DNA from: an uncultured Gaiellales bacterium
GTDB lineage: Bacteria; Actinomycetota; Thermoleophilia; Gaiellales; Gaiellaceae
Assembly: GCA_964461665.1 (NCBI GenBank)
Contig: CAYXAS010000002.1
Span: forward strand, 5,400-69,399
Direction: 5' to 3'
Length of the DNA: 64,000 nucleotides
The position numbers were made by a program, and so were the translations under genes. Position 1 is the stretch's first letter, and the number at the start of each line of letters is the position of its first letter. The notes below the pieces were generated by a model. That model did no database searches, was not told where the DNA came from, and saw nothing but the letters and a program-made list of their open reading frames with translations. Shown here piece after piece: positions 5,328-41,375 of this stretch.

Positions 5328-6580
5328 GCGGCGAAGAACGACCGGACGGCCTCGACGGTGAGCACGACCTCCGCGTCTCCGTGCGCCGTCGAGGGGAACA
5401 GACACTCGAACTGAGAGGGCGGCAGGTAGATCCCCTCGTCGAGCAGGTGCCGGAAGAGCGCCCCGAAGCGCACCGTGTCGCAACCGGCTGCGTCGTCGTG
5501 GTCACGGACAGGTTTGTCACGGAGGAACAGCGTCAGCATGCCGCCGACCCGCTGCACCGTCCCGAACGGCGCGAGTCCCGCCTCGAGTGTCGCACCGACC
5601 CGTTCGAGGTGTGCATACACCCCGGGATCGCGCAGCCGCCGGAGGGTCGTGATCCCGGCCGCAGTTGCGAGCGGGTTCCCGGAGAGCGTCCCGGCCTGGT
5701 ACACGTCGCCCAGCGGGGCGAGCCGCTCCATCAGCTCGGCCCTGCCCCCAAAAGCCGCAAGTGGGAGCCCGCCGCCGACGATCTTTCCGAGCACGGTCAG
5801 ATCGGGCAGCACGCCGTAGCGCTCCTGCGCCCCACCGCGACCGACCCGGAACCCTGTCATCACCTCGTCGAACACGAGCAGCGCGCCGGTCGCATCGGCG
5901 AGCGTGCGGAGCGCCTCGAGAAAGCCTGGCGCGGGCGGCACGAGACCCATGTTTCCGGCGACCGGTTCGACGAGAATCGCGGCCAGACCCTCCCCGTACC
6001 GGGCGCATGCAGCCGCCGCCCCGTCGATGTCGTTGAACGACACGACGACCGTGTCTGCCACCACCGCCGACGGAACTCCGGGCGTGGAGGCGATCCCGAG
6101 TGTCATCACGCCCGACCCGGCGCTCGCGAGGAGCGCGTCCACGTGCCCGTGGTAGCAGCCTGCGAACTTCAGCACCCGATCACGGCGTGTCGCGGCCCGC
6201 GCGAGGCGGAGCGCGCTCATCGACGCCTCCGTCCCGGAACTGACGAGGCGCACCATCTCGATCGACGGCACCGCGTCCACGATCTCCGCGGCAAGCTCGA
6301 CCTCCGCCTCCGTCGGTGCACCGAATGTCGTCCCGTTCGCCGCAGCGGCGGTCACTGCCGCAACGATCTCCGGATCTGCGTGGCCGGACACGAGCGGCCC
6401 CCACGACTGCACCCAGTCCACATACCGCCGACCGTGGGTGTCCTCGATCCACGCACCCAAACCCCGGCGCATCACAACCGGCTCGTCGAGTCCGACGGCG
6501 CGCATCGCGCGGACGGGCGAGTTGACCCCACCCGGGATCAACGACGTCGCACGGCGCCAGAACGCGGAGACATCGCTCAC
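5324..6580 (-). CDS. hemL: Glutamate-1-semialdehyde 2,1-aminomutase
   Basis: 418-aa ORF with N-terminal [11 protein letters not shown] and class-III aminotransferase layout ([13 protein letters not shown]..., [14 protein letters not shown]). The GTG start overlaps the hemB stop. Confidence 0.95.
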
Positions 6581-33527: not shown

Positions 33528-34091
33528 ATGCTTCGGGTGACAATCGACACGAGCGTGGTCGCGGGCGACATGCATCGGCTTCGGGCGAGCGCCGCGGGTC
33601 TGGGGATCGAGTTCGTGATGACGACCGTCACTCAGAGGGAGAACTTCGGCCAGATGGCGAGCAGCGGAATCCCGGAAGGATCGACCGATACTCAGCGGCC
33701 GACTGCATCGGCTGTGTTCGATTGGTCGTCGCTGGCTGTGATCGACGAGACGGCGATTCTGGACGAGTCACGTGTCGGCATGGCCGTTCTGGGCGGCAAC
33801 GAGTCCGCGGCGCTCCTCCAGCGGATCCTCGGGATGATGCGGAACGACAAGTCGTCCAAGCCGCAACTCGGAGGTGAGCGCTCGTGCGGAGAGATGCATC
33901 AACTCCGCGACGCCCTGATGCTGGAGGCGCACGTGCGGTCGGGACACGACATCCTCGTCTCGAACGACGTGAAGGGATTCATCGGAAAGACAGGTGAGAC
34001 CCGAGCACATCTGGAGGAACTCTGCGAGACCCGCATCATGACCGTGGACGAGTTCTGCGCCGCGTTCTCCGCGGTTGCTCCGATGCCCTAG
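33528..34091 (+). CDS. Orphan PIN-like domain protein
   Basis: 187-aa ORF. It has candidate PIN acidic residues in VTIDTSVV, TVTQRENF, LRDALMLEAH and ILVSNDVKGF, plus a ~60-aa insertion. It is visibly less GC-rich than its neighbours, with no partner ORF. The alternative start GTG 33537 has GGGGA 8 nt upstream. Confidence 0.55.
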   Translation: MLRVTIDTSVVAGDMHRLRASAAGLGIEFVMTTVTQRENFGQMASSGIPEGSTDTQRPTASAVFDWSSLAVIDETAILDESRVGMAVLGGNESAALLQRILGMMRNDKSSKPQLGGERSCGEMHQLRDALMLEAHVRSGHDILVSNDVKGFIGKTGETRAHLEELCETRIMTVDEFCAAFSAVAPMP

Positions 34092-34244: not shown

Positions 34245-35717
34245 TCAGGCGTTCGGCCCGCTTGCGAGCGACTCGGCGAGCGCGGCAAGCTCCGCCAACG
34301 CCGACTCGAGTTCCTCGACGATCTCTCGAGCGATCGCGCCGGGTGGTGGCAAGTTCTCGGCGCCCTCGAGGGAGAGATCCTTGAGCCACGTGATGTCGAG
34401 GCTCGCCTTGTCTCGCGCGACGAGCTCGTCGTAACCGAACCGCCTGAACCGCTCCGACTCCACGCGGCTTGCACGGTCGCCGGCCTGGAAGCAGCTGACG
34501 AACTCGTCGAGGTGCTCGCGGTGAAGCGGGTTCTGCTTGAGCGTGAAGTGCTGATTGGTGCGGAGGTCGTACACCCACAACTCGCGCGTCCACGGCTGTT
34601 CGGCGGCGGGCTTGCGGTCGAAGAAGAGGACGTTCGCCTTCACACCCTGGGCGTAGAAGATGCCGGTGGGCAGGCGCAGCAGCGTGTGCACGTCGCACTC
34701 CTCGAGCAGCCGCCGACGCACCGTCTCCCCCGCGCCTCCCTCGAACAGCACGTTGTCGGGCACGACGACCGCTGCCTTACCGTTGATCGCAAGCATCGTT
34801 CTGACGTGCTGCACGAAGTTGAGCTGCTTGTTCGAGGTTGACGCCCAGAAGTCGTCGCGCACCACCACGAGATCGTCGCGGGCGACCTCCCCCTCGTCAC
34901 TCACGAACGTGATTGACGACTTCCGACCGAACGGCGGGTTCGTGAGCACCATCTCGAACCTCTCGCCCGAGTCGGACTTGAGCGCATCCTCGACAGCGAT
35001 CGGGCTCTCGTGCTCCTCGTCACCGATCCCGTGAAGGAGCAGGTTCATCACACACAGCCGCGCGGTGTTGTCGACGATCTCCCAGCCCCGCACCGCCTCG
35101 TAGCGCAGGTGCCACTTCTCGTCGGGGTCGAGCAGCCCGCTCTTCGCGATCGACTCGTGCGCTGCGAGCAGGAAGCCGCCTGTGCCGCAGGCCGGGTCGG
35201 CGATCCGCGTCCCGGGCTGCGGCTGCATCACCTCCACGATCGCCCGGATCAGTGGCCGTGGCGTGAAGTACTGCCCGGCGCCGGACTTCACGTCCTCGGC
35301 ATTCTTCTCGAGCAGCCCCTCGTAGGCGTCGCCCTTCACGTCGATGTCGAGCGTCAGCCAGGCCTCGCGGTCGATCAGGTCGGCGACCAGGCGGCGAAGC
35401 TTCGCCGGATCCTGGATCCGGTTTTGCGCCTTGCGGAACACCACCCCGAGCATCCCCGGCTTCCGCCCGAGCTCGGTGAGGACGTGCCGATAGTGCACCT
35501 CGAGCGCGTCGCCATCGCGCTCGAGTAGCGACTGCCAGCCGAGCTCCGCCGGCACGATCGCCGGGCGCGAGAACGGCGGCCGCGTCTGCTCGTCCGCCAT
35601 CTTCAGGAACAGCAGGTAGGTGAGCTGTTCCAGGTAGTCGCCGTACGAGAGCCCGTCGTCGCGCAGGACGTTGCAGTAACTCCACAGGCGCTGGACGAGG
35701 CCGTGCTGTGCGCTCAT
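34245..35717 (-). CDS. hsdM: Type I restriction-modification N6-adenine DNA methyltransferase subunit
   Basis: Real part of ORF 34245..35972 from ATG 35717 (MSAQHGLVQRLWSYCNVLRDDG...). It has HsdM N-terminal domain features, motif I DPACGTGGFL and motif IV NPPFG. Confidence 0.93.
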   Translation of the reverse strand: MSAQHGLVQRLWSYCNVLRDDGLSYGDYLEQLTYLLFLKMADEQTRPPFSRPAIVPAELGWQSLLERDGDALEVHYRHVLTELGRKPGMLGVVFRKAQNRIQDPAKLRRLVADLIDREAWLTLDIDVKGDAYEGLLEKNAEDVKSGAGQYFTPRPLIRAIVEVMQPQPGTRIADPACGTGGFLLAAHESIAKSGLLDPDEKWHLRYEAVRGWEIVDNTARLCVMNLLLHGIGDEEHESPIAVEDALKSDSGERFEMVLTNPPFGRKSSITFVSDEGEVARDDLVVVRDDFWASTSNKQLNFVQHVRTMLAINGKAAVVVPDNVLFEGGAGETVRRRLLEECDVHTLLRLPTGIFYAQGVKANVLFFDRKPAAEQPWTRELWVYDLRTNQHFTLKQNPLHREHLDEFVSCFQAGDRASRVESERFRRFGYDELVARDKASLDITWLKDLSLEGAENLPPPGAIAREIVEELESALAELAALAESLASGPNA

Positions 35718-36121
35718 GCCAGCCGAACTCGCGTGATCCGCATCTTGTGCACGGTGTAGAGGAACGGCCCCGGATCTTCGCACACGGCCTCGATGCGCTG
35801 CCGGTGTCGGATGAGCCGCTCTGCCTGCTCGGCGGCGGCAAGGTTGCCGCTCGCCAACACGAACGCCTTCACACGGAAGCGGCGGATTGCCGCAAGTTCG
35901 GCCGGGCGGTAGCGGATGCGGCGATCCATCGTGAGCACCGGCCACTGCTCGCTGCCGCAGAGCGTGAGCCACTCCACATCCTCAACCGCCTCGTCGCGGC
36001 CTCCGAAGACCTCGCGGTGCGTGCGGATGACCCATCCCGCGTCGCGGAGCGCATCGGCAACGTCGCGTGCACCGAGGCTTCTGTCGATGAAGAACTCAGG
36101 CGGCGACGGGGAGTGCGGCAC
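35714..36121 (-). CDS. PIN-like (DUF5615 / VapC45-like) putative toxin
   Basis: Real part of ORF 35714..36229 from GTG 36121. The sequence is EFFIDRSLGARDVADALRDAGWVIRTHREVFGGRDEAVEDVEWLTLCGSEQWPVLTMDRRIRY, about 135 aa. The stop overlaps the hsdM ATG (ATGA). Confidence 0.65.
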   Translation of the reverse strand: MPHSPSPPEFFIDRSLGARDVADALRDAGWVIRTHREVFGGRDEAVEDVEWLTLCGSEQWPVLTMDRRIRYRPAELAAIRRFRVKAFVLASGNLAAAEQAERLIRHRQRIEAVCEDPGPFLYTVHKMRITRVRLA

Positions 36122-36809
36122 GCAGGTACTCCTCGACGTCAGCGGCCGGGACGCCGAAGTCCCGTGCGACGTGATCGAGCGACTCCCCAGCCTTCCAGCG
36201 GCTGACGACGCTCTCGACCGGCGCTGCACCGCGCATGAACATCGGCTGGCCGAACGCTCGCAGAGGATCGATCACTACGACGGGCTCGCGGGTGGTCGGC
36301 GAGGCGAGTTGCGTAGCCCACCCGTCGGTTCCGTACTCGATGCGCTTCAGGTACGCCTGCACGATCGGTGCGAACACCCGCTGTTGCGAGACGACCTCCG
36401 TCAGACCCGCGAGCTCGTCGTCGTGCTGCGCGCCTGCGTAGTCGAACAGGATCACGGCGCCGTCCGTGTAGACCTTCTGTGATGCGAGGGCGTGCGCGAT
36501 GCCGATCTCGTGGTCGAGGATCGCGACCGCCTTGCGGATGTGTTGCATGCTCACGCCCCCACGCCTGAACGCCGCGAGCACCATCCCCTCGGCTAGCCCA
36601 ATGAACGGGATGCTCGGAAAGCCGCAGTCGGCATCGACGCTCGTGACGAGAGCAGCGCCATGGACTGGGGGGCGAGCCGGGGGCTGACGCACATAGCCCC
36701 GCGCCCAGGTCGCGAACGTCGACGTCGGCACGCCGAGGAAGCGAGCCGCCTCGTTGAGCGTGTAGAGCGGCGCTGCGAAGCGCAGATCGTCTGTGGCGGC
36801 GGTCGTCAT
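36096..36809 (-). CDS. HTH + DUF433 protein (VapB45-like putative antitoxin)
   Basis: 237-aa ORF with an N-terminal HTH (YTLNEAARFLGVPTSTFATWARG) and a C-terminal DUF433-like segment (VIDPLRAFGQPMFMRGAAPVESVVSRWKAGESLDHVARDFGVPAADVEEYL). The ATG overlaps the hsdS stop. Confidence 0.7.
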   Translation of the reverse strand: MTTAATDDLRFAAPLYTLNEAARFLGVPTSTFATWARGYVRQPPARPPVHGAALVTSVDADCGFPSIPFIGLAEGMVLAAFRRGGVSMQHIRKAVAILDHEIGIAHALASQKVYTDGAVILFDYAGAQHDDELAGLTEVVSQQRVFAPIVQAYLKRIEYGTDGWATQLASPTTREPVVVIDPLRAFGQPMFMRGAAPVESVVSRWKAGESLDHVARDFGVPAADVEEYLRAALPVAA

Positions 36810-38098
36810 CCCGACATGGTCGCACGTCGGCGTGGGTGTCCGCCAGTCGCCCTCTCGGACATGGCCCGTTCCGCGCGGATGCGGGCGAGGAGCGCCTCGG
36901 CCGGCTCGTCGGCCGGGGCCTGCGTGACGAGCTCGCCACGGAACGCGCGCTCGAGGATCGCACGGCGGAGCATCCGGGAGCGCGCCTGTGCCCGCTCGAT
37001 CGCGGCGCGCGCAGCATCGATCGCGGAGAGCTGCTCCTCGATCCGCGCCACGATCCGGCGCTGCTCGTCAAGGGGCGGGACCGGGATCTCGACGGTCTTG
37101 AACCTGGCGAGAGACACCTTCTTCTGCGCGACCCCGCTCGTAATCCGAGCGATCTGCGTTCTCACGCCATGCAGCACAAATGTCAATGCCAGATAGGCGG
37201 CCTCGGCCTCGTTGCATGGGGTCACCTTGATGCAGTCCGCCGTCAGCACGGCGGGCGGCCTATTACTCGGATAGACCGCAGCATCTCCAGGCGGGTCTCC
37301 CATCTTCGTAACGAGCAGGTCGCCTGCACGGACTTGGTGCGCGGCCAGCGCCTTGGCTTTCTCGGCCGATATGAACCGCGTTCCCGGTCCGCCGAACGCC
37401 CTGCGGCGGATGTCTCGAACGAAGATCAGTGGAACCCCGGAATCCGCGTAGTCGCTGACCTTGAGGTTGCTTCCGAACGGCCCGATCGCGAGTGCGTGTC
37501 GGCTTCCATCGCCGAGACGTTCCATCCGGCGAGTCATCCAGTCATCACCGATCGCGTCCACTACAGCGCTGCGACGCAGCGCATCAAGGCGGCGGAAGGC
37601 GGCTGAGAGGGAGGCGTCGGCGGCGTCGAGGCGGGAGAAGTGCTCCTCGATCGCCGCCACGATCCGCCGCTGCTCGGCGAGCGGCGCGACTGCGATCGTG
37701 TGAGCCCTCACCTGGTTGCCGTTTACTGCCTCAAACGTAGAACCCGTCCCAAGCTCTGCAAGGCTGCGGACTGACGCCCGGATCGCCCACAGCACGTAGC
37801 GGGAGTCGATACCTCCAAGAGGCCTGACGGCCGCAAGCCCGCGGCCGATAACACAGTCGGTTGGAGCGAGGTTCGTAGGCCCAACGGGGGCGCGTATGGA
37901 CAGCAGCACATCGCCTGCGCGTGCGAACTTGGACCCAGCGGTTGTCCACTTCTGAACCGTGGGCGTTAGGTCGCCGAACTCAGCCTTGCCCTGGAAGAAG
38001 GGCCGACCTTCACCATCGGCGTTGTAGAAACTCCCCGGCGGGGACTGGCCCAGGACGATCTCCGCAACCTCGTCGAGCCGAGCAGCGATCCAGCTCAC
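36806..38098 (-). CDS. hsdS: Type I restriction-modification specificity subunit
   Basis: 430-aa ORF with two target-recognition domains. They are separated and followed by the conserved helices PLAEQRRIVAAIEEHFSRLDAA and PLDEQRRIVARIEEQLSAIDAA. The TRD DNA is AT-richer (32 G+C of 60 nt counted at 37141-37200). Confidence 0.92.
   Translation of the reverse strand: MSWIAARLDEVAEIVLGQSPPGSFYNADGEGRPFFQGKAEFGDLTPTVQKWTTAGSKFARAGDVLLSIRAPVGPTNLAPTDCVIGRGLAAVRPLGGIDSRYVLWAIRASVRSLAELGTGSTFEAVNGNQVRAHTIAVAPLAEQRRIVAAIEEHFSRLDAADASLSAAFRRLDALRRSAVVDAIGDDWMTRRMERLGDGSRHALAIGPFGSNLKVSDYADSGVPLIFVRDIRRRAFGGPGTRFISAEKAKALAAHQVRAGDLLVTKMGDPPGDAAVYPSNRPPAVLTADCIKVTPCNEAEAAYLALTFVLHGVRTQIARITSGVAQKKVSLARFKTVEIPVPPLDEQRRIVARIEEQLSAIDAARAAIERAQARSRMLRRAILERAFRGELVTQAPADEPAEALLARIRAERAMSERATGGHPRRRATMSG
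37031..37676 (-). repeat. Pair of 37-bp direct repeats inside hsdS (conserved-region repeats)
   Basis: 37031-37067 (ctgctcctcgatccgcgccacgatccggcgctgctcg) versus 37640-37676 (gtgctcctcgatcgccgccacgatccgccgctgctcg). 33 of 37 positions are identical and the copies are 609 bp apart. Confidence 0.85.
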
Positions 38099-40896
38099 GC
38101 GGCGAGCGCCTCGTTGATCTCCGCGAGCAGAGGCGTGAGCCCGTCGCCGAACACCTGGGCCGCCCGCCCGAGCCCGCCCGCCTCGAGGAACGGCGTGAGG
38201 GAGAAGTCCTCGGCCGTGATCGCGAGCGAAGCGGAGACGTGGTCACGGATCCGGTCGAGCCAGGCGCGCTGCTCCCCGCTGAACATGCGCCCGGCGTTCT
38301 CCTGCTGGAGCAGCCAGGCGCGGTAGCGCTCGCGCACCAGATCGGGGTAGGCAACGAGCTCCTCGTCGTAGTGGAGCGCAACGCGGACGAGCGAGACGAG
38401 ATCGGTGAGGACGCGCCCGCCGGAGCCGTGGACTCTCGAGCGGTCGAGCTGCTCGTAGGCGGACCACAGCCGCTCGGGCGTCCAACCGTGCGGTGGGCGC
38501 GCGATCGCGAGGGCGAGCTCCTTCACCTCGCGGAAGGTGAGCCGCTGCGGCTGGCGGCGGGCGTAGAGGATCTCGAGCGCGGTGATCTCGTCGCGGTTGT
38601 CCGCACAGAAGCGCTCCCATGATTCGACGGTCCGCCGGGCGAGATCGGCGGCGTCGGCGGAGTAGCCAGCGTCGATCACCTCGTCGGTGGAGGTCTCGTC
38701 GATCGCCTGCTCGTGCATGCGGCGGAGATCGACGAGCCGCCGCCGCAGGTCGGGGCTGGTGGCGAGCGGGGCCAGCGCCTCGTCGAGCAGCCGCCGGGCG
38801 GTATCGACGATCTGCTCGGCGACGGGATCGACGCCACCTGCGGTCGCGCGCGCGGCCGCGAGTTGCCGATCGGGGTCGAGCGCGGTGACGATCTCGGACG
38901 CGATCTCCTTCAGCGTGCGACCGCCAGCGAGGACCCTAAGTTCGGCTCGTTCGTCCTTCCCGAGACGGCGGTCGAGTCGCGAGAGGCGCGCGGCGATCGA
39001 GGAGGCGACCTCCGGGTCGCGGTCGCCAAACGACACCTGGGTGAGCAGTTTCTCCAACGGGACGGTGGGAGCGCGGTCGAGCGGGACGGTGTCGACCAGT
39101 TCGCTCTCGGTGACGCCAACCGCATCGACGATCACGAACCGCTCCTTCGCCTTCGCGTCAGGGGTGACGGCCTGGAAGGCGGTCTCGTCGATCACGCGGA
39201 CACCGCGGCCCTTCATCTGCTCGAAGTACGTGCGGCTCTTGACCGAGCGCAGGAAGAACACGCACTCGAGTGGCTTCACGTCGGTGCCGGTGGCGATCAT
39301 GTCGACGGTCACCGCGATGCGCGGGTTGTAGGCGTTGCGGAAGGCGGCGATCAGCTCGTCGGCTTTCTTGCCCGTCGCCTTGTAGGTGATCTTTGCCGCG
39401 AAGTCGTTGCCCTTGCCGAACACTTCGCGCGCGAGCTGGACGATCTCGTCAGCGTGGGCGTCGTCCTTCGCGAAGATCAGCGTCTTCGGCACCTCGCTGC
39501 GGCCGGGGAAGATCTCGGTGAAGAGCTTGTCGCGGAAGGCCTCGAGCACGGTTCGGATCTGGTCGCGGGCCACGATGTCGCGGTCGAGTTGGGCCGCGGT
39601 GTAGTCGAGATCCTCGTCGAGCGTCTCCCAGCGGGCCTTGCGGGTCTGCCGGTCGCGAAACTCGGTCACGATCCCCGCGTCGATCGTCGAACCCTGCTCG
39701 GTGATCCGGGTGCGGATCCGGTACACGTCGAAGGGGACGTTGACCTGGTCGACGACAGCCTGCTCGTGCCCGTACTCCATCACGAGGTTCTGGTTGAAGA
39801 ACCCGAACGCCTGCTTGTTCGGTGTAGCCGTCAGACCGACCGTGAATGCGTCGAAGTAGTCGAGTACCTGCCGCCAGTTCCCGTAGATCGAGCGGTGGCA
39901 CTCATCCACGATCACAACGTCGAACATCTCCGGCGGAACCGCGGGGTTGTATTCGACCGGCACCGCCTCGGCCGCCAGCTCGTAGGCGGAGCGCTCGTCC
40001 AGCTCTGCGTCCAGTTCCGCGTCACCGCGGAGGATCGAATAGACCCGCTGGATCGTGGAGATACAGACACGGGACACCGGGTCGATCGTGTTCGAGCCGA
40101 GGTGCTGCACGTTGTAGAGATCGGTGAACTTCCGGCCGTCATCGGGCGTCGTGAACCCCTGGAACTCCTTCAGCGTCTGCCGCCCCAGGTTCGCCCGGTC
40201 GACCAGGAACAGGATCCGGCGGGCGTCTGCATGCTTGATCAGGCGGTACGCGACGTTCGCTGCGGTGAACGTCTTGCCCGAGCCGGTCGCCATCTGGATC
40301 AGCGCCCGCGGCAGGCCGTGCGCCAGAGAGGCCTCCAGGTTCGTGATCGCCGTGTGCTGCGCCGGCCAGAGTCCGGTGGGCTGCAGGTCGGGCGTCGCAC
40401 GGACGCGGTGTCGGAGTGTCGGCGCGAGCGGGTGGCGTCGCCGCTCGTCGAGCCAGCCGATCAGTGTCTCGGGCCGGTGGAACGAGAACACCGGCCGACT
40501 CGCCGGGTCGGGGTCGAGGCGGTTCGTGAACCGAGTCTCCGTCGCGGTCGACTCGTACACGAACGGCAAGCCGCCCTCGACCGCGGGCACGAGAGCGTCC
40601 GGCAGCCCGTCGGCGTAGCGGGCGCTCTGCCACTCGACCCCCGTCAGGGTCTCACCCTCCTTCTTCGCCTCGATCACCCCGGCGGCGCGGCCTTCGAGGA
40701 ACAGCAGGTAGTCCGCCCGGCCGTGGGGCGGCCTCATCACGAACTCCCGCACCGCAACCCCGCGCGAAGTGCCGAGGTTCACCGCGTCGGCACTCTGCAC
40801 CGTCCACCCTGAGGCTTCGAGCATGCGGTCGATCCCGACCCGGGCTCGCGCCTCGGGACCCAGGTATGCGGCGACGTCTCTAGTCACAGCGAGCAT
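38095..40896 (-). CDS. hsdR: Type I restriction endonuclease subunit R
   Basis: 933-aa ORF with an N-terminal nuclease region (RADYLLFLEGRAAGVIEAKK), SF2 helicase Walker A MATGSGKT and a DEAH-like VIVDECHRS. It also has a long C-terminal helical domain. The stop overlaps the hsdS GTG. Confidence 0.93.
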   Translation of the reverse strand: MLAVTRDVAAYLGPEARARVGIDRMLEASGWTVQSADAVNLGTSRGVAVREFVMRPPHGRADYLLFLEGRAAGVIEAKKEGETLTGVEWQSARYADGLPDALVPAVEGGLPFVYESTATETRFTNRLDPDPASRPVFSFHRPETLIGWLDERRRHPLAPTLRHRVRATPDLQPTGLWPAQHTAITNLEASLAHGLPRALIQMATGSGKTFTAANVAYRLIKHADARRILFLVDRANLGRQTLKEFQGFTTPDDGRKFTDLYNVQHLGSNTIDPVSRVCISTIQRVYSILRGDAELDAELDERSAYELAAEAVPVEYNPAVPPEMFDVVIVDECHRSIYGNWRQVLDYFDAFTVGLTATPNKQAFGFFNQNLVMEYGHEQAVVDQVNVPFDVYRIRTRITEQGSTIDAGIVTEFRDRQTRKARWETLDEDLDYTAAQLDRDIVARDQIRTVLEAFRDKLFTEIFPGRSEVPKTLIFAKDDAHADEIVQLAREVFGKGNDFAAKITYKATGKKADELIAAFRNAYNPRIAVTVDMIATGTDVKPLECVFFLRSVKSRTYFEQMKGRGVRVIDETAFQAVTPDAKAKERFVIVDAVGVTESELVDTVPLDRAPTVPLEKLLTQVSFGDRDPEVASSIAARLSRLDRRLGKDERAELRVLAGGRTLKEIASEIVTALDPDRQLAAARATAGGVDPVAEQIVDTARRLLDEALAPLATSPDLRRRLVDLRRMHEQAIDETSTDEVIDAGYSADAADLARRTVESWERFCADNRDEITALEILYARRQPQRLTFREVKELALAIARPPHGWTPERLWSAYEQLDRSRVHGSGGRVLTDLVSLVRVALHYDEELVAYPDLVRERYRAWLLQQENAGRMFSGEQRAWLDRIRDHVSASLAITAEDFSLTPFLEAGGLGRAAQVFGDGLTPLLAEINEALAA

Positions 40897-41036
40897 TGTT
40901 CTCGAACGGTCGGATCGGCGTGTTCCGCGATCGCTTCGGTCACGCGCGCGTCCGTCGAAAGGTCAACGCAAGCGCGATCCGCAGATCTCGGGTGCGATGC
41001 GACGCCCTCGAACGCCGATCGGCGCGCGAGGCGGCC

Positions 41037-41053
41037 GAGCCGGGAGTTCCGGC
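41037..41053 (-). terminator. Short hairpin downstream of the 78-aa gene, upstream of hsdR
   Basis: AGCCGG (41037-41042) / CCGGCT (41048-41053) with a 5-nt loop, 3 nt from the stop at 41056-41058. Confidence 0.35.
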
Positions 41054-41055
41054 TG

Positions 41056-41292
41056 CTACCGCTGAGCGGCTTTTGCCGCTTCGGCCATGTCGCCGCCGAC
41101 AGCGCGGAGGATCTCCGGGCGGTCGAGCAAGCGCGCGCGCTGCGCCGGGGACGTAAGCCGATTCACCACGTACTTGTCCTCGAGGATCTCTGCGAGCGAC
41201 CGACCACGGTCGTGCTCGCGGATCACGTACTGCGCCACCCGCTCCTCTGCACCCGAGGACTGGGAGAGAAACGAGAACAGGTTCTTCAGCAT
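41056..41292 (-). CDS. Hypothetical small soluble protein (78 aa)
   Basis: ORF 41056..41355; from the internal ATG 41292: MLKNLFSFLSQSSGAEERVAQYVIREHDRGRSLAEILEDKYVVNRL... No family recognised. Confidence 0.5.
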   Translation of the reverse strand: MLKNLFSFLSQSSGAEERVAQYVIREHDRGRSLAEILEDKYVVNRLTSPAQRARLLDRPEILRAVGGDMAEAAKAAQR

Positions 41293-41375
41293 CGCCTGCG
41301 GATCATGCCACGCAACGCCAGAGGCCGTCGGTTGCTGCCGCCCCGCGCGACGCACGCTGGTACGGTCGCGCGTCC

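Follow-up and report, generated by a model that had tools for sequence, protein, structure and literature searches.

A type I restriction-modification (R-M) operon with an embedded toxin-antitoxin pair lies on the minus strand of the window analysed here, a 64,000 nt stretch of DNA from an uncultured Gaiellales bacterium (positions 5,400–69,399 of contig CAYXAS010000002.1). The pair, a DUF433-containing antitoxin gene followed by the gene of a predicted PIN_10 toxin, is located between hsdS and hsdM. Comparison with related loci shows that this junction is a general cargo slot of the R-M family, and the DUF433-PIN_10 pair is only one of its many occupants. The association of the pair with hsd genes is real and has been retained in one lineage, but the pair family overall is a free-standing, mobile toxin-antitoxin system and not specific to R-M loci. 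Our reading, held as probable with some reserve, is of a standard type I R-M operon whose cargo slot has taken up an autonomous VapBC45-family cassette, the cassette being expressed together with the operon and coupled to it in translation.

Operon layout and gene identities

The operon begins with hsdR, encoding the restriction subunit (38095–40896, 933 aa), and hsdS, encoding the specificity subunit (36806–38098, 430 aa). These are followed by a VapB45/Rv2018-like antitoxin gene with HTH_66 and DUF433 domains (36096–36809, 237 aa), and by a VapC45/Rv2019-like toxin gene of the PIN_10 family, which belongs to the Mut7-C group of PIN-like nucleases (35714–36121, 135 aa, GTG start). The last gene of the operon is hsdM, which encodes a type I N6-adenine methyltransferase (34245–35717, 490 aa). 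All five genes are on the minus strand and are interlocked. The hsdR stop and hsdS start share the sequence GTGA (38095–38098), the hsdS stop and antitoxin start share ATGA (36806–36809), the antitoxin and toxin genes overlap by 26 nt (36096–36121), and the toxin stop and hsdM start again share ATGA (35714–35717). The interior of the operon contains no intergenic gaps, and the sole non-coding gap is the 159 nt intergenic region 5′ of hsdR (40897–41055). The gene order, the four overlaps and the identities of the genes had been proposed earlier from the sequence alone (the original prediction); the order and overlaps were confirmed on the window sequence, and the identities by matches to Pfam, PADLOC and NCBIfam. 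The longest possible open reading frames (ORFs) of the PIN-like gene and of hsdM exceed the models given above, but the shorter models are preferred because PIN_10 relatives are 134–137 aa long, and those of HsdM have about 490 aa, starting with MSAQ.

The chaining of the genes is not a chance feature of this sequence, as the same kind of overlaps are found in L166 (loci are cited by number), a related full R-S-pair-M operon in which they measure 4, 4, 26 and 1 nt, and the 26 nt overlap between the antitoxin and toxin genes occurs also in L081, L164, L165 and L167. Two further operons, L001 and L002, show the identical gene order, with tightly abutting matches. The tight coupling of the five genes was therefore upheld, being seen in the window and again in L166. 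Throughout the HsdM family, hsdM typically begins in an RTGA overlap whether cargo is present or absent; chaining is a property of the R-M family rather than a peculiarity of the window locus.

The R-M genes have the sequence attributes of a type I system, namely an HsdM with its SAM-binding and NPPF catalytic motifs, an HsdS with two matched stretches, and an HsdR with a superfamily 2 helicase/translocase core and an N-terminal nuclease of the PD-(D/E)xK kind. HsdR carries the Pfam domains ResIII, SWI2_SNF2, Helicase_C and HSDR_N, and a C-terminal EcoEI_R_C domain (E = 1e-32), matches PADLOC REase_I (E = 5e-44), and shows 60–82% identity to its relatives. A nuclease motif of the form D...EAK (RADYLLF...VIEAKKEG) is readable at residues 62–78 of its translation. 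The protein falls below the equivalog cut-offs of NCBIfam (restrict_EcoAI, 197 vs. 550 bits; PRK11448, 362 vs. 729), and, carrying EcoEI_R_C, appears to be related to the EcoAI/EcoEI type without reaching equivalog level. HsdS matches Pfam Methylase_S in two stretches and PADLOC Specificity_I (E = 2e-58) over its full length, for example at residues 1–390 of 392 profile positions. Its identity to relatives is only 24–40% over full-length matches, as expected from the variable target-recognition domains of such proteins. HsdM matches N6_Mtase (E = 3.7e-67) and HsdM_N (E = 2.5e-10) in Pfam, and MTase_I in PADLOC (E = 2e-191); more than 100 homologues are 78–87% identical to it. The HsdM motifs DPACGTGGFL and LTNPPFG are readable in the translation and, together with the D...EAK motif of HsdR, make the R-M system look intact. 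The closest relatives found are mostly metagenome-assembled genomes of Gaiellales and Solirubrobacterales (class Thermoleophilia).

The two embedded genes form a pair of the VapBC45 (Rv2018/Rv2019) family of type II toxin-antitoxin systems, in agreement with the original prediction. The antitoxin matches HTH_66 (E = 1.8e-30) and DUF433 (E = 2.2e-6) in Pfam, both of which are domains of DNA-binding type (PMC2701414), and residues 8–229 match PDB entry 5af3 (E = 3.2e-44), the structure of the VapB45 antitoxin Rv2018 (PMC5499597). The toxin scores 78.4 bits against Pfam PIN_10 (PF18478; cut-off 26.2; E = 4.4e-22), and 128 homologues of it were found. The toxin homologues of the Mycobacteriales lineage among the collected loci (L020, L041) are 45–51% identical to the window protein. 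An alignment with 26 diverse homologues showed that residues E9, D13, S15, D48, D66 and E75 are invariant, so that the acidic residues anticipated for this PIN-like ORF are indeed conserved. Toxicity of the window protein is a prediction from its relatives: Rv2019 proved toxic to both E. coli and M. smegmatis, is neutralised by Rv2018, and cleaves rRNA and mRNA (PMC5175181). The PADLOC-DB collection (v2.0.0) gave no family match to the toxin and, for the antitoxin, a weak helix-turn-helix match to mad1 only (E = 9e-6). The molecule name of 5af3 in the PDB reads 'VAPBC49', in conflict with the VapB45 assignment of PMC5499597; VapBC49 is described elsewhere as Rv3181c-Rv3180c (PMC3968373).

The hsdS–hsdM junction and the distribution of the pair

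The loci related to the window operon through HsdM comprised three contexts from look-ups and 80 metagenome loci (HsdM identity 64–84%). In all 56 of these loci where the three hsd genes were seen, their order was hsdR-hsdS-hsdM. The original prediction had treated this order as an oddity, a view that does not hold, as it is the rule among the relatives and figures among the four main type I gene arrangements on record (PMC12255300). The hsdS gene was seen upstream of hsdM in 69 loci, with a direct junction in 34, usually as an RTGA overlap, and an insert of 0.3–4.6 kb in the other 35.

The main ORFs of 25 inserts were scanned against Pfam, and revealed a very diverse cargo, although 18 of 40 ORFs gave no match. 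HEPN+MNT pairs, HepT/MntA, MarR+HEPN and CBS-HEPN are represented, as are NERD, an HD-domain protein, and DUF3644 joined to a restriction-endonuclease-like domain. Also present are canonical PIN, AbiEi/AbiEii with WYL, MazE+Fic/Doc, AAA_15/AAA_21 ATPases and AAA_14-DUF4143. Other cargo comprises HTH-IrrE, RhuM, HipA_2+DUF3037, DUF6119 and an IS200-like gene. One related R-S-M operon carries a pair resembling a cyclic oligonucleotide-based antiphage signalling system (CBASS), in which a TIR-STING effector gene adjoins a nucleotidyltransferase-like gene (L149, 5967–7966). The occupancy of 35 of the 69 junctions, and the diversity of the occupants, identify the junction as a general docking slot. 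The idea of cargo lodged within a type I locus thus proved sound, with the DUF433-PIN_10 pair sitting in the slot of the window operon.

Genes related to insertion sequences are found in the slot or nearby, such as Y1_Tnp in L116 and IS110 in L168. A slot protein of about 210–265 aa recurs in L116, L118, L124 and L157, and more weakly in L097. The L116 copy, the sole member scanned, has a C-terminal match to the IS200-like Y1 transposase (E = 1e-6), and the protein could represent either a mobile element or a nuclease that has been domesticated. The pair-bearing locus L004 (8655–11676) consists of hsdS, an unassigned ORF of 191 aa, the pair, and two separate hsdS 3′-end fragments, after which the contig ends. 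The fragments are 66–74% identical to the C-terminus of the window HsdS and are separated by further unassigned ORFs, and none of the unassigned ORFs around the pair in this locus matched Pfam. The fragments suggest turnover or accretion of cassettes via recombination at the conserved hsdS 3′ end.

The distribution of the pair itself was determined by an alignment-based scan for PIN_10 proteins, restricted to one genome per species, which yielded 80 loci with up to 10 kb of sequence on each side. The antitoxin gene lies directly upstream of the PIN_10 gene, as a two-gene unit, in 78 of the 80, and in 74 there is no hsd gene within 10 kb. These two figures are the basis for regarding the pair as autonomous. 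Only five loci (L001, L002, L003, L004 and L007) have hsd genes of the same family beside the pair; in L038, an unrelated type I hsdS and hsdM lie 5–7 kb away on the opposite strand.

Look-ups of close protein relatives added five loci beyond this census (L164, L165, L166, L167 and L081). The pair lies between hsdS and hsdM in L164 and L165, where hsdR is absent. In L167 (816–5770), hsdR and hsdM survive as decayed fragments and two pairs are stacked, MazE-PIN first and DUF433-PIN_10 second; in L081 (4032–9479) the DUF433-PIN_10 pair is followed by a MarR-like gene, a HEPN-like gene and then an intact hsdM. In both of these, and in L007 (7460–11871), the pair has survived the decay of the R-M locus, where hsdR is truncated, hsdS broken up or hsdM fragmentary.

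A neighbour-joining tree of the concatenated pair proteins places every embedded case included in it within one clade, which also holds the free-standing pairs of L005, L006, L008–L014 and L016. The architecture is kept within a clade spanning two orders. A strong or general enrichment of the pair beside hsd genes, which the original prediction would lead one to expect, is therefore not seen, as 74 of 80 loci are free of hsd genes and the embedded cases fall into a single clade.

The closest operon relative found, L084 (5821–6615; HsdR 82%, HsdM 84% and antitoxin 79% identity), has lost the core of the toxin by an in-frame internal deletion, while the antitoxin is kept intact. What remains of the toxin gene is a mini-ORF of about 36 codons, reading VPPSLSPPEFFL followed by ACAEPGPLPYAVHATQIVRFFPG. 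It still shares sequence with the antitoxin gene, and its last bases are part of the ATGA at the hsdM start. The deletion indicates that the R-M system can do without the toxin, and fits a toxin that is costly or dispensable. As both overlaps have been preserved, selection on translational coupling into hsdM is suggested.

Expression and role of the embedded pair

A consensus scan detected no sigma-70-like promoters, although the sigma-70 consensus fits this high-GC lineage poorly, and the number of terminator-like matches (five, vs. 2.5 ± 1.5 expected) was not significant. The operon promoter is presumed to lie at 40897–41055, as this is the only non-coding gap of the operon. The free-standing pairs of L005, L006, L008–L014 and L016 carry a conserved TACGATC box about 5–20 nt upstream of the antitoxin start, and the embedded pairs of L007, L164 and L165 carry it also. 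Actinobacterial −10 elements have the form TANNNT, which TACGATC fits, and the resemblance would mean a leaderless or short-leader transcript. No such box exists in the window, L001, L002 or L166, where the antitoxin start either adjoins the hsdS stop or overlaps it, and even the shorter sequence TACGAT does not occur in the window between 34001 and 41400. This lineage has lost the promoter-like box of the pair. Absence of the box, together with the abutting or overlapping start, favours, without proving, a pair that is expressed as part of the operon transcript.

Under the favoured reading, the R-M enzyme would methylate and restrict DNA as usual, while the antitoxin would sequester the RNase toxin. 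If expression of the operon stopped, because of phage shut-off or because the locus was lost or disrupted, the antitoxin would decay, and the freed RNase would cleave rRNA and mRNA and bring about growth arrest. Lability of the antitoxin and the trigger of toxin release are deduced rather than observed. The outcome would be a stabilised operon, possibly with an added abortive-infection back-up. The pair would stand outside the chemistry of restriction, and would not be a dedicated sensor of the R-M system.

Several points weigh against this reading. The embedded state extends over one whole clade of the pair, so that embedding looks old and retained rather than a casual insertion. We infer co-transcription of the pair with the operon from two features only, the lack of gaps and the lack of the TACGATC box, and an internal promoter may lie inside hsdS. 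Complete loss of the box combined with strict chaining would fit a tighter integration than the term autonomous cargo implies. Finally, the PIN-like fold of the toxin lacks a match in structure searches. An AlphaFold2 model with a mean predicted local distance difference test score of 89.8 gave nothing below E = 0.001 when compared to the PDB by Foldseek (best match SurE, E = 0.025, TM-score 0.49), and a sequence search of the PDB with the toxin returned chance matches only. The missing structural match is in line with Matelska 2017 (PMC5499597), where the Mut7-C group is described as a reduced PIN-like fold for which no structure has been solved.

The alternative that survives best, though we think it unlikely, is that the pair is a selfish cassette in a recombination-prone slot, kept there by its own addiction and bringing no benefit in defence or to the R-M system. 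The promiscuity of the slot, the IS-related genes in or near it (Y1_Tnp in L116, IS110 in L168), the hsdS 3′ fragments flanking cassettes in L004, which suggest accretion driven by recombination, and the decay of the toxin in L084 are all consistent with a neutral passenger. Such a passenger would hardly be expected to retain its architecture over a clade spanning two orders, and the remodelled start/stop overlaps and lost box imply long residence and selection on expression. Most of the slot cargo, moreover, comes from defence-associated families.

A further alternative, which appears quite improbable, is that in the lineage of the window, L001, L002 and L166 the pair has become an obligate and stoichiometrically coupled module of the type I operon. 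The RNase would then be an abortive-infection effector or guardian, firing when phage anti-restriction or host shut-off interrupts expression of the operon, and the antitoxin would double as a coupler or regulator of hsdM. This second function would explain why L084 retains its antitoxin after deletion of the toxin. If true, such a module would show how a free-standing toxin-antitoxin pair can evolve into an integrated R-M accessory.

A dedicated sensor comparable to PrrC, in which phage anti-restriction proteins, by inhibiting the Hsd enzyme, or a subunit imbalance would free the PIN_10 RNase and abort infection, is very unlikely. The pair is embedded, co-oriented and fully chained, its architecture recurs in L001, L002 and L166 (with overlap lengths confirmed in L166), the TACGATC box has been lost in the window subclade, and there are precedents in PrrC of EcoprrI (PMC12707154) and in DarTG2 of a type I system (PMC12255303). 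However, PrrC is almost exclusively embedded (Payne et al. 2024), whereas 74 of 80 pair loci are free-standing, and the toxin is already matched by a cognate antitoxin, itself a protein. More than 20 unrelated cargo types share the slot, the pair persists beside the decayed R-M remnants of L007, L081 and L167, and L084 has an apparently intact R-M system without the toxin. The guard role that had been proposed for the pair is thus not supported, mainly because the pair is mostly free-standing and the toxin has been lost in L084. Membership of the PrrC/RloC type of guardians was rejected in view of the 74 hsd-free loci, the two-protein nature of the system, and the missing ATPase domain; no PADLOC match to PrrC was found at the locus, and Pfam detected no ATPase domain in the pair.

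Equally little weight is given to regulatory co-option, whereby the HTH_66-DUF433 protein would act as a C-protein-like regulator of the operon or its gene as a spacer for translational coupling of hsdM, the toxin being secondary. The antitoxin does have two domains of DNA-binding type (PMC2701414), and L084 keeps it intact, with both overlaps, despite deletion of the toxin core. In M. tuberculosis, vapC21 adjoins hsdM, and its deletion raises the transcripts of the adjacent hsdM and of hsdS.1 (PMC7517352). But L084 is a single example and could reflect a recent deletion, the cargo-less operons L082, L083, L126 and about 30 more manage without such a regulator, and the toxin is clearly constrained, with invariant acidic residues.

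Related systems and flanking genes

The nearest known counterpart of the pair is VapBC45 (Rv2018-Rv2019), which we take to be a free-standing pair in Mycobacterium tuberculosis. It has the same HTH_66+DUF433 antitoxin and PIN_10 toxin, with the antitoxin gene upstream. The window pair differs in being nested within a type I operon, in being chained to hsdS and hsdM, and in lacking the TACGATC box.

The original prediction knew of no type I system carrying a DUF433/PIN-like pair between hsdS and hsdM, but there is an earlier report of such a pair with type I genes. Matelska et al. (2017, PMC5499597) described PIN-like toxin-antitoxin genes linked to type I subunits, among them a DUF433-PIN_10 pair of Belliella baltica that shares an operon with the genes of HsdM, HsdS and GmrSD. 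The likeness to the window is one of gene content, as the same toxin-antitoxin family occurs with type I hsdM and hsdS genes. The restriction component named there is GmrSD (type IV) and not HsdR as in the window, and Belliella baltica belongs to the Bacteroidota. The R-S-[pair]-M chain of Thermoleophilia is a conserved lineage separate from the Belliella case.

Embedded cargo is also known from other type I systems. In the RRDM island of enteropathogenic E. coli (EPEC), DarTG2 lies between hsdS and hsdR, at a site called a likely recombination hotspot (PMC12255303). DarTG2 too is a toxin-antitoxin system lodged among type I genes, but its slot is hsdS-hsdR, whereas that of the window is the hsdS-hsdM junction of an R-S-M operon. 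A systematic survey of embedded genes, with type I systems among the hosts covered, found them to be co-oriented in 96.7% of cases and proposed co-regulation (Payne et al. 2024); the same-strand nesting between hsd genes in that survey is as in the window. The classic embedded guardian is PrrC in the type IC EcoprrI locus (PMC12707154), which has no separate antitoxin, whereas the window pair has its own antitoxin and comes from a mostly free-standing family.

An actinobacterial locus of similar layout is found in M. tuberculosis, where hsdS (Rv2761c) and hsdM (Rv2756c) encode partner subunits and the genes are non-adjacent. In the annotation of strain H37Rv, the genes between Rv2761c and Rv2756c (MamC) are vapBC42 and vapBC21. 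Type I S and M genes with VapBC-type genes in between are thus common to both loci, but the cargo of M. tuberculosis is canonical PIN VapBC and not DUF433/PIN_10, and hsdR is absent there. L164 and L165 share the R-less S-[pair]-M layout with M. tuberculosis and hold the DUF433/PIN_10 pair itself, while L167, with its two stacked toxin-antitoxin cassettes, can be compared to the hsdS-vapBC-hsdM arrangement. The window locus is, then, a further example of a known pattern and not a new kind of system.

Its value lies in being a clean, conserved natural case of a type I operon that has taken in a toxin-antitoxin cassette. The natural variants, comprising cargo-less operons, a toxin-deleted operon that keeps its overlaps, embedded pairs that still bear the box, and remnants consisting of the pair and hsdM, may lend themselves to comparative tests of how such cassettes come under shared regulation with the host defence system, and of whether they stabilise that system or back it up. 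With about half of the hsdS-hsdM junctions in this R-S-M family occupied, the slot is also useful for guilt-by-embedding searches in poorly studied Actinomycetota.

Six flanking window proteins gave no tblastn matches in 163 loci (L001–L163). Convergent with hsdM is an ORF of 187 aa (33528–34091, plus strand) that has loosely PIN-like sequences at its N-terminus (TIDTSVV) and C-terminus (ILVSND). It matched nothing in Pfam (E up to 10), NCBIfam or PADLOC, and was beside the operon in no related locus. As a candidate second PIN-like gene it was rejected, an hhalign comparison with the PIN_10 alignment giving a probability of 0.1%. On the other side of the operon, an ORF of 99 aa (41056–41355, minus strand), with no Pfam, NCBIfam or PADLOC match and not conserved beside related operons, represents a putative gene on the same strand as the operon, directly upstream of the presumed hsdR promoter region.

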